Source: Acidilobaceae archaeon
GTDB lineage: Archaea > Thermoproteota > Thermoprotei_A > Sulfolobales > Acidilobaceae
DNA length: 64,000 nt
NCBI GenBank assembly: GCA_038824665.1
Contig: JAWBBK010000003.1
Span: 318 to 64,317 of the forward strand
Direction of reading: 5' to 3'
Shown: positions 2,557-8,739 of the stretch, in pieces
Layout of the letters: each line of letters opens with the position of its first letter
How positions within the stretch are numbered: position 1 is the first letter of the stretch
Position numbers and translations under genes: made by a program
Notes under the pieces: generated by a model
What the model saw: the letters and a program-made list of their open reading frames with translations, nothing else
What the model was told of the DNA's origin: nothing
Database searches by the model: none

Positions 2557-4344
2557 ATGGAGAGATGGAAGGTTTTAGCCAACAAGATCTACAATATGCT
2601 CAATATGAATTACGAGCTGGTCTTCGTCTTCGCTCCTACGAGCTACGGTAAAACAATGGCTTCACCGTATTTACTTGATCTTGCACGTAAGAACATGATG
2701 GCTAGCAGGCTTATTCACGTTGTTCCCGTTAGAACTCTCCTTAGAGAAATATATAATGAAAAGTTTAAAAGCTTCTCTGATTATCTTAATGTTAGCTACC
2801 AGTCTATGGATAGGATTCCTGGAGGGAGCAAGAGTCCATATTTTCTTTCAGACATTATTGTAACTACTTTAGATAGCTTCCTCTGGAATATATATAAAAT
2901 CCCTGTAGCTGAGATATCGAAGATCTTACGCAATATATCGATGGGTCATTACTATCCTGCTCTAGCAGCGATACAGACCTCTATAGTGGTCTTCGACGAA
3001 GCTCACGTTTATATAGGTGAGCACGAAGAAGATAAAGAGAGAATAGCGATAATATCTGCACTTAACGCTATACGCGAGCTTGAAGTGCCTATCGTTCTCT
3101 CTACAGCTACTATGTCCTCAAAGCTTGTAGAAGCGATCATAAACACTTTAGGTTTGGACAGAAATAAGGTTGGAGTAGTTTATGCTTGCAATAAAGCGTG
3201 TAACAAACACGTAAGGAGATTAGAAAAGTATTTAAAGCTAAAGGTAGAGTACATAGATAACTTATCTAGCACGGTCAATTGGAACACGCGTGTAGTTGAT
3301 GACAAAGATGTAAATAGTTTAGTAAATCTAGTAGGAAAGTATTGTCGCGACAAGATCGTACTCGTAGTAGCCAATACTGTTGAGAGAGCTGTAGAATTAT
3401 ATAGGAAGAGTAAAGAGAAATGTAAAAGAGCAACGCTAATCCACTCTAGACTAACGGAGGAAGACAAGGAGAAATCTTATAATGAAATTAGAGAGATTAA
3501 AAATGAGAGAAAAGGGTTAATAGTTGCTAGCCCGATAATAGAGGTCGGAGTCGAAGTTGACGCTGATATCCTAATAACGGATGAAGCGCCTCTAGAGAAC
3601 TTGATCCAAAGAGCTGGAAGACTTTGTCGTAGTAGAAGTGGTCAATGTAATGCCGAGGTAATTATATTGAAGAACGTTGCAGGCGATTATCCCTACGATA
3701 AGAATGATGTCCAGAGAAGTGTTGGAGCAATAGAGAATATAGTGAAAAATGGAAGGTGTATAGAGTGGAGGCTCTTCAGCTCTGAAAACTGTGAACCAGT
3801 TATCCAGATACTTGACCGTATTGCTAAAGATTTTAGCGTTACTTCGAGTAGAATACTTAGAAACTATTTGGTATTTGATTCTACGCCAAAAATCTTGATA
3901 GAGGAGTTAAACCTTAAGAATTTGTATAATTTGTTTAGAGGCTTCTCTATGGTAAAAGCGGTTGTAGACATTTCGAACTGCAAAAGAAGCGATAATAGCG
4001 TTGATATCGACTGTATAAAGGATAAATTCTTCGCAACCAGCGTAGAGACGCTTAGATGGCTAGAGAGTAAGATGAAGTGTTTGGAAACGGACAACGATGT
4101 CGATAAGAATAGCGTCAAAGCGTTGGTTTTAATAGCTAAACGAAGCGCGTCTGAGAAAAACGTATTTAGCGTTAAAGAGGTAGATTCTGTTGTCCTACAT
4201 AACGCTATCTTTAAGGAAGGTTATCATATACTAAAAGTGCATAGGGATATCGAGAAAGTTCTTGATGAAGGTGAGGTTGAAGTAGATTTCTTCGTTAAGA
4301 TTAAGCCAGAGTGCTATAGTGAAGGTGAAGGAGCGTATGTCTAA
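2557..4344 (+). CDS. cas3: CRISPR-associated helicase Cas3'
   Basis: APTSYGKT Walker A, VTTLDSF, FDEAH, STAT, IHSR, EVGV.VD and QRAGRLCR motifs; no HD domain (split Cas3). Confidence 0.95.
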   Translation: MERWKVLANKIYNMLNMNYELVFVFAPTSYGKTMASPYLLDLARKNMMASRLIHVVPVRTLLREIYNEKFKSFSDYLNVSYQSMDRIPGGSKSPYFLSDIIVTTLDSFLWNIYKIPVAEISKILRNISMGHYYPALAAIQTSIVVFDEAHVYIGEHEEDKERIAIISALNAIRELEVPIVLSTATMSSKLVEAIINTLGLDRNKVGVVYACNKACNKHVRRLEKYLKLKVEYIDNLSSTVNWNTRVVDDKDVNSLVNLVGKYCRDKIVLVVANTVERAVELYRKSKEKCKRATLIHSRLTEEDKEKSYNEIREIKNERKGLIVASPIIEVGVEVDADILITDEAPLENLIQRAGRLCRSRSGQCNAEVIILKNVAGDYPYDKNDVQRSVGAIENIVKNGRCIEWRLFSSENCEPVIQILDRIAKDFSVTSSRILRNYLVFDSTPKILIEELNLKNLYNLFRGFSMVKAVVDISNCKRSDNSVDIDCIKDKFFATSVETLRWLESKMKCLETDNDVDKNSVKALVLIAKRSASEKNVFSVKEVDSVVLHNAIFKEGYHILKVHRDIEKVLDEGEVEVDFFVKIKPECYSEGEGAYV

Positions 4345-5227
4345 TTTGGAGTGGCCGCTAGCTTATGCTGAAGGATCTCCAGAAGACCATCAAGTCGTTA
4401 GCTTAAGCGACCATTTAAGTAATACTGCTAAGATGGCTTTCTGTTTGTTTGACAACGATCTAGAGGTCTTATCTAAGAGAGCTAGAGTCGATAAGAAAAC
4501 GCTCACTAAGACGCTCGTTTTATCTGCTGGGCTACACGATATTGGGAAAGCTTCACGTTATTACCTTGAGAAATGGTTTGAAAATCGGAGGCTGACGTTT
4601 CCTTATCATGAGTTCTTATCGGCTTTGATCCTTTACGAACTGTATCAACGATATGTAGACGAATCTAAACGTGAGCGTGAACTCGCGTGTTTATTTAGAA
4701 CTTCGGCTAAGATAGTGTCTAGACATCATTCATCAATGCTCAATAGACATCCATCTAATCATGCCGATATGAATTTGATAAACGGAGTTAGGGATGCTAC
4801 ACAAAAGATAACGAGTTCAGACGTTATGAAAGCTCTCGAGCAACTCTTATGTAATATGCAACTCTTATGTAATATATGGATTGTAAAGGATGAGCTTGAT
4901 ATTATTATGACGAGAGTAGAGGACGTTATATCTCAGCTTAATAAAATGGAGAATAACGATATAAAATCAATTGTTATGACGATAGCGGACCTTAGGTCTG
5001 ATCCAGGAGACGTATGTGGTAACATGAACGAACTCGTAGTCGTTAGAACTATAACGGGATTCCTCATAATAGCTGATAACATAGTCGCTAGCTACGAGAG
5101 AAGAAGCACTGATGACTCGCCTATGCCTGCTTATATTGGAAGCTGGATAAGAGAATTAGAGCGAAGGCTTGAATGTTGTTCTCGTCTTTTAAGTTGTTCT
5201 GAGAATTTCTCCTCCTTTACTTTTTAA
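4337..5227 (+). CDS. cas3'': CRISPR-associated HD nuclease Cas3''
   Basis: LSDHL, LHDIGKA, HEFLSA, SRHH and IIADN metal-binding motifs. ATG at 4337 overlaps the cas3' end. Confidence 0.93.
   Translation: MSNLEWPLAYAEGSPEDHQVVSLSDHLSNTAKMAFCLFDNDLEVLSKRARVDKKTLTKTLVLSAGLHDIGKASRYYLEKWFENRRLTFPYHEFLSALILYELYQRYVDESKRERELACLFRTSAKIVSRHHSSMLNRHPSNHADMNLINGVRDATQKITSSDVMKALEQLLCNMQLLCNIWIVKDELDIIMTRVEDVISQLNKMENNDIKSIVMTIADLRSDPGDVCGNMNELVVVRTITGFLIIADNIVASYERRSTDDSPMPAYIGSWIRELERRLECCSRLLSCSENFSSFTF
4841..4875 (+). repeat. In-frame 18-bp tandem duplication inside cas3''
   Basis: caactcttatgtaatatg followed by caactcttatgtaatat, encoding QLLCNM-QLLCNI. Confidence 0.9.
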
Positions 5228-5588
5228 TTTAATTGTGTTTAGTTATGTTAGAACTCGCTAACCTAGTTCTGTAACTAGTTATCAGCTAGAGGCTTAGCTA
5301 AGAGGATGAGCTGACGTGTGTTTTCTCTTGATAATGAACTTCGAGGCTCAACAACAGATAGCGCGTTATGTTCAAGATCATGAAGGCACGTTAAAGCTTT
5401 ATGTGTATTCAGAGAGAACAGCGTAAAGTAGACCTTCTGATCGCTCATACCTTATAGCGACACTAGAGGTCTACTAGAAGTTCGCAAACGTTAAGAGTTG
5501 AACTATAGAAACAAGGCTTTTAGAAACAGAAGATCGACTGTTGAGATTTAAAGCCTTCGGTCTAACTATCGAGCTTCAGGGAGCAGCT

Positions 5589-6100: not shown

Positions 6101-6226
6101 CCTTGAATCACAAAAGCTGTTGTACGATCGTGATCTCTTCTCAAACAGTTGACAGCTTTAAAACATAAAAAGACGTTAAGACTTACGCTTTATTTTTGAT
6201 CTTAGCTTCAAAGAGGGAAACAATTA

Positions 6227-7117
6227 TTGAGTGAAGAAAGAGGAGTTGTTGGAGACGTTTTAGTAATAGTTAGACTGAATGGAGTTCTTAAAGCTGTTAA
6301 GCTTGATGACATTAAGACGTACAAAGACACAGGCTACAACATAGAGGTATATGGAATCAATAAAGACTTAATCGATAGATTTTATCGTCTTAAAGACGTT
6401 GAGGAAAACGAGTGTAAAGACTTAGCTGTAGTCTATGTCAAAGGTCATCACTCTTTGTCTCTATGCGAAGATCATTTGGTTCCGGTCGCAGGACCTCGCG
6501 GTCTTGAAGAAAAGCCTGTTCGAAATTTAAAGCCAGGAGACTTCGTGTTCAGCTTCGTTAAAAACCGTCTTCAGGAAGAGTCTGAACGACTTTCACAAAG
6601 CCTATTGTTGGAAGAAAAAGATGAGATAACGTGTTCTAGAAGACCTGAAGATTTAGCGGTCTCTCTTTGGTCTTTAAGACTTAGCGGTATCCTTTCAACT
6701 CTCGCTATCAACAAGCTTTGTCTGAAATCTTATCTTACGAGAAGAGAGAGAGATAGAGTTGAGAAGCTTCCTATGTTGTTCTTCAAAGAGCTAAAGCTGT
6801 ATCTCAGAGAAGCTACAAGACGTTCAGATCATTGTAGACATGTCTACTCACATCTTAAAAATAGAAGAGCTGTTTCGAAACGTATAGCTTTACATGCTTT
6901 AAGAGACCTTTTGGAACTCGTGTCTTCTAAAGAAGTTAAAAAAGAGGTTCTCGAACTATTAGAAGCTTTGATCAAACTTGCTTCAAGCAACCTCTACGTT
7001 GCTGAGGTGTCTAGAGTAGAGATGCAGAGAGTTGAGAAAAACGTAAAAACGTATTCTTTAAAAGTCGAAAAAGCAACTTATGTCTTCTTAGGATTAGCTC
7101 CTATCCTAATAACTTAA
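6227..7117 (+). CDS. Stand-alone intein-like Hint-domain protein lacking splice-junction residues
   Basis: Block A-like GVVGDVLVIVR, block B-like LSLCEDH, LKPGD, and C-terminal LASSNLYVAEV..TYSLKVE..FLGLAPILIT (blocks F/G) ending without HN. Confidence 0.75.
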   Translation: MSEERGVVGDVLVIVRLNGVLKAVKLDDIKTYKDTGYNIEVYGINKDLIDRFYRLKDVEENECKDLAVVYVKGHHSLSLCEDHLVPVAGPRGLEEKPVRNLKPGDFVFSFVKNRLQEESERLSQSLLLEEKDEITCSRRPEDLAVSLWSLRLSGILSTLAINKLCLKSYLTRRERDRVEKLPMLFFKELKLYLREATRRSDHCRHVYSHLKNRRAVSKRIALHALRDLLELVSSKEVKKEVLELLEALIKLASSNLYVAEVSRVEMQRVEKNVKTYSLKVEKATYVFLGLAPILIT

Positions 7118-7858
7118 AAGTAGTTTCTTAAATCTAAGCGCGTCTTCAAACGAATAAACGTTATTGAAAAGCACGTAAGCGACTTCAGGGTTTAGCTCTT
7201 CCAATATCTTCTTTAATTGAAGCAAGTCTTCATCTGTATACTTGTATCTATAGTTCACTTCTTGACCTCCGAGACCATGGAGTCTGAAGTACGCGATCTC
7301 TCTTTGTTCTTTAAGAACTCTGCCTCTAAGAGCGTCTCCGCCTATAACTACTTCAGCATGAGTTGCAACGTTAACTAGCTCGTCTGGTTTGTTCCACCAA
7401 TCTCCTCTAGGCTCCCACACGATAATCTTGCCTCTTCTCGGAACGTTTTTGAAGAACTCAAGCGCTCTGACTTTGTTGACTTCGTTGAAGCTAAACGAAG
7501 GAGGAGTTTGAACAACTATTATCTTAGAGCTGAGAGCATCAGCTACTTCAAGGGTTTTCTCCCAAGCCCAAAGGACCTCTTCAGTTAGTTTGAGAGACCC
7601 GTAGTTTTCTAGCCTTCCTGGAATCTCTTCTTTGAGTTTAGACCAAAGGTTTTTGTTGTATTCATGTGTAATCAACATCCAAGCTTTTATTGTAAACTCA
7701 AACGTGCTAGAAGCCTCTTTGCGCCATTTGCTGTAACTCTCTGTTCTAGGATCGTAGAAGGTTTGTTGTACTTCTAGCACGTCGAGATTAGAGTAGTGAG
7801 CTTTACGAGATTTCTGAAATCCGCAAGTGCCTATCTTAACCTTCATGTCTGTCTCCAA
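7106..7858 (-). CDS. DUF72 family TIM-barrel protein
   Basis: IGTCGF, EVQQTFY, FTIKAW..ITH, QTPPSF, WEPRG, YFRLHG, YKYT, VLFNN motifs. Confidence 0.93.
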   Translation of the reverse strand: METDMKVKIGTCGFQKSRKAHYSNLDVLEVQQTFYDPRTESYSKWRKEASSTFEFTIKAWMLITHEYNKNLWSKLKEEIPGRLENYGSLKLTEEVLWAWEKTLEVADALSSKIIVVQTPPSFSFNEVNKVRALEFFKNVPRRGKIIVWEPRGDWWNKPDELVNVATHAEVVIGGDALRGRVLKEQREIAYFRLHGLGGQEVNYRYKYTDEDLLQLKKILEELNPEVAYVLFNNVYSFEDALRFKKLLLSY

Positions 7859-7933: not shown

Positions 7934-8344
7934 TTAACCGATCTTTCTTATTCTAAGCTGAACCACGCTTTCTAAAGCGTTTAGATAAGTTCTAAGGTCG
8001 TCAGGAGTTATCATAGACTTAGAGAAATCTACTATTAACGTACACTCAGCTTCTTCCCCTCTGACTATAGTCGTACATCTAGTTATCAACTGGTCTATGT
8101 TGACTTTAGCCAAAACTTCAGCTACAGAAGCGAACGCTCCTGGTTTATCTAAAAGTCGCAACTCGATCTCGTAAAGCCTTTCTGGCGATGCGCTTACAGG
8201 TGTCAACTCTATCTCTCTTTTATCGATATCTGCTACCATAACTATATGCATTCCAGGCTCGATACCTAAGGCCTCTCTTATAGACTGAGGGATCGTGAGA
8301 CGACCTTTAGGGTCTACCTTGACTATCTCAGATAGCTTAGTCAC
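7934..8344 (-). CDS. AbrB-family regulator with C-terminal ACT domain
   Basis: VKVDPKGRLTIPQSIREALGI (AbrB) plus DKPGAFASVAEVLA (ACT). Confidence 0.9.
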   Translation of the reverse strand: MTKLSEIVKVDPKGRLTIPQSIREALGIEPGMHIVMVADIDKREIELTPVSASPERLYEIELRLLDKPGAFASVAEVLAKVNIDQLITRCTTIVRGEEAECTLIVDFSKSMITPDDLRTYLNALESVVQLRIRKIG

Positions 8345-8484
8345 TTAGTTCCACCTGTAATCTCTTAAAGATTAAGCTTTAAATATGTGTATTTTTGTGG
8401 AGAAATTGTGGGCTCTTTCAAAAACCTTCTATAGTTAAAATTTATATCCTGTTTAAATTTAAAAAGAGAGTGCTGGGTCTGAAA

Positions 8485-8739
8485 TTGACTTATAGAAAGC
8501 TGTATAGAGTTTATTATACTACGTACTCTGACGAACTACACGAAAAGGTGAAAAAAGCGCTTGTTGAAAAGTTTAGAACAGAGATCGTAGACCACTCTTC
8601 TATAGTACATCCTGAATTCCGTTTTTTAGAAGTCTTGTTAAAAGAGCCTAACAAAAGCAGTGAGATAGCTGAAGTCGTAAACTCGATTTTAGGTTGTGAA
8701 CAAGTTAAGGTCGATTGGATAGACACTGAGGTGGGCTAG
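8485..8739 (+). CDS. Small conserved-looking hypothetical protein upstream of ileS
   Basis: ORF abuts the ileS start; likely TTG start at 8485. Confidence 0.6.
   Translation: MTYRKLYRVYYTTYSDELHEKVKKALVEKFRTEIVDHSSIVHPEFRFLEVLLKEPNKSSEIAEVVNSILGCEQVKVDWIDTEVG

Follow-up and report, generated by a model that had tools for sequence, protein, structure and literature searches.

Inteins are usually seen as nothing but parasites, passing through cycles of invasion, decay and loss, and well-documented cases of intein bodies kept for a new use are few, namely yeast HO and WHO, both of which still cut DNA; the homing endonuclease scaffold has also been reused in WhiA. Here we examine a 64,000-nucleotide (nt) stretch of DNA from a hot-spring Acidilobaceae archaeon (assembly GCA_038824665.1, contig JAWBBK010000003.1, positions 318 to 64,317 of the forward strand; the whole stretch is called the window) and, within it, a stand-alone open reading frame (ORF) of 296 amino acids (aa) that we label gene X (window positions 6227-7117, + strand). 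Gene X almost certainly descends from an intein and has lost the activity of its ancestor, and it is probably a selected, non-catalytic, exapted intein, i.e., a prokaryotic chromosomal gene that would have kept the whole intein scaffold without its chemistry, under purifying selection since before two genera split. Our search of the open-access and preprint literature found no paper on archaeal inteins that are stand-alone, orphan or domesticated, and gene X could be the first domesticated intein in a prokaryotic chromosome, none being described in the literature searched.

The HO and WHO elements are described as intein-derived, stand-alone and extein-less, without the C-terminal motif G (PMC7282813). 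Gene X likewise has no exteins and no motif G, and it lies beside one particular gene, as WHO lies downstream of FBA1. However, HO and WHO are characterized in that source as active LAGLIDADG nucleases with a C-terminal zinc finger, often multi-copy, mobile and eukaryotic, whereas gene X is archaeal and single-copy, lacks both a nuclease motif and a zinc finger (block G being the end of the ORF), and adjoins a DUF72 gene whose 3′ end shows no sign of replacement in a test of low power. A second comparison is provided by the Arth_1007 intein of Arthrobacter sp. FB24, which retains 66 extein aa in total, lacks essential residues, the block B His among them, and cannot splice (PMC3196547). It is presented there as a bacterial class 3 intein and a pseudogene in one genome, in an account that offers no evidence of selection or orthologues, while gene X is entirely without exteins and has orthologues in two genera and a ratio of non-synonymous to synonymous substitution rates (omega) of 0.16.

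Other relatives are true inteins. Those embedded in the RFC small subunit and in a FlaI/VirB11-like ATPase share with gene X block A, the block B region, EKxV..LKPGD..SFVK, W-L-A-R-I-x-G, E-x-I/L-P, V-S-K and blocks F and G, and their 304-333-aa forms, which are also without LAGLIDADG motifs, have the same three-part architecture. Unlike gene X, these inteins sit in frame inside a host protein and keep Ser1, T-x-x-H, the block F Asp and His-Asn. Among solved endonuclease-bearing archaeal inteins, 2cw7 (“intein homing endonuclease II”), TliVMA (7qss, 7qsu), PhoVMA (7qst) and PI-PfuI (1dq3) share the Hint fold and part of the insert (Foldseek E 1.8e-10 to 1e-8, sequence identity 13-15%), but they are splicing-competent (partly crystallised as C1A mutants) and carry a complete two-motif LAGLIDADG domain.

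Gene X aligns with embedded inteins over its whole length

We compared gene X with its relatives in an alignment, A2, of 6 free-standing proteins and 20 embedded inteins. The latter came from 27 distinct inteins excised from 29 loci, of which 7 near-duplicates were left out of A2; L037 (which starts with Cys) and L039 (without a C-terminal match) were dropped, and L020 is a duplicate of L009. All 27 excised inteins have Ser first and His-Asn last, followed by Ser or Thr, and they occupy two sites, LELNA^S...HN^SDERGI and FQAxx^S...HN^TGH (carets at the intein boundaries).

In A2, residues 6-19 of gene X fill the block A columns, with Gly6 in the column of intein residue 1, and LSLCEDH falls on block B (T-G-S/N-H-S), its His retained and Cys in place of Thr. 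Downstream, EEKPVRNLKPGD agrees with the intein consensus, SLWSLRLSGI corresponds to the W-L-A-R-I-x-G block located after LAGLIDADG motif 2, RRAVSKR to the V-S-K helix of embedded inteins, and the C-terminus to blocks F and G. Exactly five residues precede Gly6, and at the other end Thr296 occupies the penultimate-His column, with the stop codon where the terminal Asn would be. A preliminary description of the locus, made from the DNA letters and their translations, had read the entire ORF as archaeal intein architecture, with about five residues ahead of block A, a LAGLIDADG-domain remnant in the middle and a basic helical segment, and each of these elements is borne out by the alignment.

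Profile searches gave the same picture, with a profile from four orthologues matching embedded inteins at E values of about 1e-13 to 1e-25, in one case uninterrupted over positions 37-325 (E 8e-25), and with short embedded forms (304-333 aa, e.g., L013, L028, L036 and L017) closest to gene X. With the gene X protein alone as query, Pfam returned no significant match and a PDB sequence search nothing meaningful. The extent of the gene (TTG start, stop at 7115-7117) is based on the ORF call, the intein alignment and the structure model; the open frame reaches just 7 codons further 5′ (303 aa in all).

Residues for splicing and DNA cleavage are missing

Position 1 is Gly in all six free-standing proteins of A2 and Ser in all 20 embedded inteins. 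None of the six free-standing proteins has the block B Thr; the block B His is kept in three (the window’s group, as C-x-x-H) and lost in the other three, and the block F Asp is retained in only one of the six. The terminal His-Asn is absent from 6/6 as well; in the window’s subgroup the His column holds the last residue of the ORF and the Asn column its stop codon, the C-terminus of gene X reading ...P-I-L-I-T-stop.

As for the nuclease, LAGLIDADG motif 1 is a gap in A2, and the columns of motif 2 are occupied by residues that are unrelated to it and not conserved. No match to PF14528 (LAGLIDADG) was obtained for any of the six free-standing proteins, and large embedded inteins (L007, L009) do match it. 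Similarly, none of the six reaches the gathering cut-off of PF14890 (Intein_splicing; 35.8 bits), with no score for P0001 and P0005 and 24.1, 19.3, 14.5 and 13.5 bits for P0003, P0006, P0007 and P0004, respectively, against 61-81 bits for embedded relatives (5/5 tested). Gene X is thus predicted from its sequence to have neither splicing nor cleavage activity, in agreement with its first characterization as a splicing-dead intein.

The modelled protein has a Hint fold with a partial endonuclease insert

An AlphaFold2 model of gene X built on A2 reached a predicted local distance difference test (pLDDT) of 92.9 and a predicted template modelling score (pTM) of 0.89, with residues 111-130 weak (pLDDT 57-72). 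The best Foldseek matches of this model in the PDB were PI-PfuI (1dq3; E 1.8e-10), TliVMA, PhoVMA and TFIIB mini-inteins, and among 37 matches at E ≤ 1e-3, all listed ones are inteins, bacterial intein-like (BIL) domains or Hedgehog Hint domains. In VIA, the model scored Z 22.4 both to 2cw7 (258 residues aligned) and to TliVMA 7qss (267 of 296 residues, root-mean-square deviation 3.5 Å), and Z 19-22 to more than 30 solved inteins, the mini-inteins aligning over ~150 residues at ~2 Å (Z 19-20.6). Because endonuclease-bearing inteins align over 258-267 residues, compared to ~150 for mini-inteins, the model indicates that the gene X protein comprises both Hint lobes and an insert that can be overlaid on part of the endonuclease domain, i.e., the Hint fold with a homing-endonuclease remnant that had been proposed for it. 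The middle domain alone (residues 112-255) scored no more than Z 4.5 to 2cw8 (101 residues aligned) and Z 4.2 to 1dq3 (112 residues aligned). Taken with the profile matches, the Foldseek and VIA scores of the whole model are far above what chance would give. The nearest clusters in the ESM Atlas, viral Intein_splicing/PT-HINT proteins (0.90-0.92), are a lead consistent with the Hint fold.

Four parts can be delineated in the model, all on the + strand. The Hint-fold N-terminal lobe (residues 6-111, window 6242-6559; beta strands within 12-110) carries Gly for Ser1, the block B equivalent C-E-D-H, and EKPV..LKPGD..SFVK. It is followed by a remnant of the second half of the LAGLIDADG domain (residues 112-171, 6560-6739), which consists of a helix, a strand, the W148-R151-G154 helix and two strands, and from which the LAGLIDADG motifs are absent. 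Next comes a basic helical sub-domain (residues 172-255, 6740-6991) with an isoelectric point (pI) of 10.2, compared to 5.6 for the Hint N-terminal lobe, and with the E-K-L-P and V-S-K motifs that are common to embedded RFC and ATPase inteins. The Hint-fold C-terminal lobe (residues 256-296, 6992-7114) includes the block F and G equivalents, with the block F Asp replaced by Leu, and ends at the penultimate-His position (Thr296).

Several positions are strictly conserved: W148, R151, G154, E179, P182, S217, K218, C136 and C165 are invariant in all nine rows of an alignment of stand-alone proteins, as are several Arg, Lys, Ser and His residues. C136 (6632-6634) and C165 (6719-6721), present in all nine stand-alone sequences, are not found in those columns of the 20 embedded inteins, and they may represent a disulfide or metal site gained after the gene became independent. 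Separately, proteins of one subgroup (group B, see below) carry a conserved C-W/G-S-H-E-W insert.

A small stand-alone family in two Acidilobaceae genera

A search of 41 related genomes yielded full-length stand-alone matches in four (G000, G001, G007 and G020; open frames of 303-360 aa), along with weaker matches inside frames of 814-1043 aa that correspond to RFC small subunits and FlaI/VirB11-like ATPases with inteins. When a four-protein profile was run over 201 genomes of the order, 52 genomes matched; three of them (G000, G007 and G020) had full-length short frames (303-360 aa), and the remaining matches were in open frames of 324-1470 aa. The stand-alone tally leaves out a few shorter frames, e.g., one of 324 aa (G045:C84, possibly cut by the contig end) and one of 440 aa (G148:C16).

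At a larger scale, phmmer against 1.84 billion representative proteins returned 10 matches at E ≤ 1e-3. Six are stand-alone and fall into group A (289-301 aa, including the window’s protein) and group B (332-354 aa), and another three carry inteins (RFC twice, an epimerase-like protein once). The tenth, P0008, a 786-aa repeat protein that matched only residues 75-113 of gene X, was treated as spurious. A profile search, in which 8000 candidates were scored and 3 family members returned, added one further cluster of 354 aa, while a word-based homologue search retrieved gene X itself only. In searches with alignment A3, genome contigs gave one orthologue and one intein, and metagenome contigs one distant intein-like match.

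Overall, the family comprises seven clusters at 90% identity from two Acidilobaceae genera (g1, the window’s, and g7), and its named members are all “hypothetical proteins” from Acidilobaceae or Thermoprotei metagenome-assembled genomes. One cluster has 14 near-identical members of 321-333 aa. Group B proteins extend 1-7 residues past block G, and gene X none. Intact stand-alone orthologues, whose existence had been posed as a question for the candidate, are thus present in five genomes, and wherever gene X was found it is single-copy and at one fixed locus. A maximum-likelihood tree of 26 rows and 357 columns places the six stand-alone proteins on one side of a branch with support 100/99, outside the RFC (100/99) and ATPase (92/95) intein groups; because they share this one branch, a single origin of the stand-alone family is the simplest reading of the sequence data.

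Gene X is under purifying selection

We evaluated selection in the pair G020-G231, the only one that is unsaturated at synonymous sites. In this comparison, the gene X rates were dN 0.086 (non-synonymous) and dS 0.527 (synonymous), i.e., omega 0.16 over 353 ungapped codons, with 94.5 synonymous versus 65.5 non-synonymous differences (Fisher p ~5e-26); the neighbouring DUF72 gene displayed omega values of 0.105-0.139. Since omega was below 0.3 in every part of the protein (0.12 in the Hint N-terminal lobe, 0.18 in the insert and endonuclease remnant, 0.15 in the helical part, and 0.27 in the Hint C-terminal lobe), the whole fold of gene X is constrained, and this is a selected gene rather than a relic. 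Within g1 and between genera, omega can be given as upper bounds only, at ~0.26-0.38 where the Nei–Gojobori method (NG86) was computable, and the ORF remains intact in five genomes despite saturated synonymous divergence in these other pairs. The early suggestion that the intact ORF reflects selection is therefore supported, the omega of the G020-G231 pair being far from neutral.

Linkage to DUF72 and possible functions

In all five genomes that carry gene X (G000, G001, G007, G020 and G231), the gene is convergent with a DUF72 gene. In the window, the latter (7106-7858, − strand, 250 aa; PF01904, 94.6 bits) shares 12 nt with gene X at the 3′ ends (7106-7117), and the overlap is 12-20 nt across G000, G001, G007 and G020 (12, 15 and 20 nt in G001, G007 and G020, respectively). 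DUF72 is the sole neighbour conserved in all gene X-bearing genomes. Synteny with both rps27e and DUF72 had been put forward as a mark of orthologues; the DUF72 part was found in 5/5 genomes, while the L44e-S27e pair lies 5′ of gene X in the window’s genus only (2/5 genomes). Conversely, gene X occurs at 5 of 30 DUF72 loci taken from the family, and the other 25 bear no trace of it (best E 0.37). Within g7, gene X and DUF72 are both present in three genomes and neither was found in the other four (90-94% complete); two of these four loci were examined, and there the AbrB-ACT gene that otherwise neighbours DUF72 is in place, with a hydrophobic 246-aa ORF where DUF72 and gene X would be. DUF72 (Tm1631) is reported, as a computational prediction, to be an endonuclease-IV-like DNA repair protein (PMC3828134, PMC4939058). 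A complex prediction for the gene X and DUF72 proteins scored 0.00 without controls, which speaks neither for nor against binding. From one metatranscriptome run of the same study, of which about 3% was read, no reads could be placed, and this carries no weight for or against expression.

The ancestor of gene X was almost certainly a class-1-type Ser1 intein of the clade now found in the RFC small subunit and the FlaI/VirB11-like ATPase of the same archaeal order. The intein body has been kept whole, with both Hint lobes, the last part of the LAGLIDADG domain and the basic helical bundle, while every residue needed for intein or nuclease action has been lost. Under the reading that we favour, the stand-alone gene would have been retained as a non-catalytic binding module. 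Such a module may bind DNA through its endonuclease-derived and basic helical surface, and might act on or with the adjacent DUF72 protein. DNA binding is our best guess because of the high pI of the helical part, although we put forward only tentatively the idea that gene X is a DNA-binding protein reusing this surface, and judged by position alone a link between gene X and DUF72 is possible. More specifically, the intein body could have been exapted to bind DNA sequence-specifically or to act as a targeting factor, perhaps one that guides or regulates the DUF72 protein next to it. This idea is a doubtful one; if true, it would have counterparts in yeast HO and in WhiA, which descends from homing endonucleases. 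In any case, gene X is small and confidently modelled, and thus a candidate for asking what a non-splicing Hint fold can do, and exaptations of this kind can go unnoticed among “hypothetical proteins” that score below Pfam thresholds.

Several observations weigh against an exapted, DNA-binding intein. The family is confined to two genera, and gene X was not found in 4/7 g7 genomes; its adjacency to and joint absence with DUF72 could reflect one deletion of two neighbours, and the two genes, being convergent, are not co-transcribed. Gene X also evolves about twice as fast as DUF72 (dN 0.42 versus 0.19 within g1, and 0.85-0.94 versus 0.34-0.40 between genera). When the middle domain (residues 112-255, including the helical bundle part) was modelled alone, at pLDDT 88.5, Foldseek returned nothing at E ≤ 1e-3, and a wide VIA search gave at best Z 6.2 to unrelated helical bundles, with no winged-helix or other DNA-binding fold standing out. 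In the full model, the DNA-contacting beta saddle of the endonuclease is cut down to three short strands. Finally, gene X contains a short (GA)n run (6743-6753, + strand) from which 2 nt are missing in one metagenome contig (run X4, word depth 5.95), a deletion that would break the gene into pieces of 175 aa and 114 aa that correspond to cluster members P0013 and P0014 on a 1528-nt contig. Slippage, a genuine null allele and an error are all possible sources of this deletion; besides it, gene X showed a single variant, 6979 T>C, which is synonymous.

Of the competing explanations, the one that survives best casts gene X as a partner of the DUF72 protein, either an accessory subunit or a regulator, with the dead intein as a targeting or DNA-clamping module for this putative endonuclease-IV-like enzyme. 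It fits a one-sided association, as DUF72 occurs without gene X at 25/30 loci and gene X without DUF72 at 0/5, and the joint absence of both genes in g7 while the AbrB-ACT gene stays. Yet the convergent genes form no operon, adjacency alone explains a joint loss in one event, the four g7 genomes without both genes may be one clade and hence a single event, and the function of DUF72 is itself a computational prediction. We consider a dedicated DUF72 subunit unlikely.

Somewhat less credible is a present or former homing element similar to WHO or HO that targets the 3′ end of DUF72, with today’s copies inactivated. Such an element would have spread by cleaving alleles without gene X, its copy then entering along with the end of DUF72. 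WHO elements are described as extein-less, without motif G, and located downstream of FBA1, whose 3′ end they replace (PMC7282813), and gene X abuts and overlaps the DUF72 3′ end in 5/5 genomes, the two genes being jointly present or absent in g7. This has to be set against the lack of a LAGLIDADG motif or conserved acidic pair in any member, the single copy at one fixed locus, and an omega of 0.16, which is not expected of an inactivated selfish element. Moreover, the five gene X-bearing genomes have one DUF72 match each at E ≤ 1e-20 and no large duplicated fragments (short ones would escape this search), and DUF72 identity between genes with and without gene X is even from 5′ to 3′, albeit in a low-power test.

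It is improbable that gene X is a slowly decaying relic, i.e., an intein that outlived its host gene and is functionless and drifting to loss. Its fast evolution relative to its neighbours, its absence from four g7 genomes, the 2-nt deletion variant and the loss of all catalytic residues would all suit decay, for which Arth_1007, published as an inactive intein pseudogene (PMC3196547), offers a precedent. For genus g7, however, the low omega across all parts of the protein largely refutes this scenario, and ORFs are intact in five genomes of two genera despite saturated synonymous divergence, as are, at 321-333 aa, the 14 near-identical members of one cluster, while the deletion lies in a slip-prone run of a single contig at a depth of ~6 and may be an error.

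Least probable by our estimate is an anti-intein factor that guards RFC and ATPase homing sites or disturbs the splicing of related inteins in trans, two roles raised in the preliminary description: the RFC small-subunit and FlaI-like ATPase genes of this genome, the hosts of the nearest active inteins, are indeed uninterrupted at both homing sites, and no other intein or LAGLIDADG match was detected in this 83%-complete genome, but this leaves nothing to inhibit, gene X branches outside both intein groups with no obvious cognate site, G020 has a second, embedded match in a 908-aa frame, and G231, a sister genome, combines gene X with an apparently competent related intein embedded at the ATPase site (Ser1, T-G-N-H-S, H-N^T), which makes both roles unlikely.

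Gene neighbourhood and other observations in the window

The L44e and S27e genes 5′ of gene X are on the same strand and both complete, with S27e covering Pfam positions 1-53 of 55 and its 3′ end 126 nt before the gene X start. With S27e complete and DUF72 on the opposite strand, gene X has no host gene on either side, as first noted. The intergenic spacer (6101-6226, + strand, 126 nt) contains an A/T-rich stretch (TTTAAAA..TAAAAA), a T-run, and GAGGG 9 nt ahead of the TTG, elements that by eye look like a possible archaeal promoter, terminator and ribosome-binding site. After L44e-S27e, the third gene is usually aIF2-alpha; the possibility that gene X is a divergent aIF2-alpha was ruled out, a normal aIF2-alpha being present on another contig (G000:C1, 101 bits). 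The codons of gene X had been called host-like, which is roughly right at most: the correlation of relative synonymous codon usage with the other long ORFs of the window is 0.85 versus a median of 0.89, while the G+C fraction of 0.384 is at the bottom of the range for these ORFs (0.384-0.470).

At ten DUF72 loci without gene X that were read, DUF72 was mostly tail-to-tail with an ORF that by eye appears to encode a small Cys-rich zinc-ribbon protein (~85-120 aa), followed by an ORF that, also by eye, resembles PCNA. This zinc-ribbon and PCNA-like pattern next to DUF72 was seen at L054, L058, L060, L063, L068 and L077, in other genera. On the other side of DUF72 in the window lies the AbrB-ACT gene (7934-8344, − strand), which encodes a 136-aa protein with an AbrB/MazE-type SpoVT domain fused to an ACT-like domain and is 85% identical between G000 and G001. 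Its position is kept across the family, either beside DUF72 or beside the gap left by DUF72 and gene X.

Directly 5′ of the ribosomal-protein genes, the helicase (595 aa; Cas3-like_C_2, DEAD, Helicase_C) and the HD nuclease (302 aa) of Cas3 are encoded separately, by two overlapping genes (2557-5227) with two more ORFs ahead of them (251-1276 and 1239-2540). No CRISPR array was found within the window by a tandem-repeat search, and the Cas3 neighbourhood is not conserved in G001. Two further metagenome-contig variants were seen between these genes and gene X. One, T>C at 6104, is intergenic. The other, T>C at 5541, hits the TTG that is listed as the L44e start codon, an indication that translation really begins at the downstream Met used in G001. 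Lastly, a small ORF just upstream of IleRS (8395-8739, + strand; 114 aa as listed) has no Pfam match, but its core (...LYR-x-YYTTYS-D/E-E...) was seen again in three other loci that were read (G206, G221 and G009), adjoining the AbrB-ACT gene in G206 and G221, and it looks like a conserved unknown protein.

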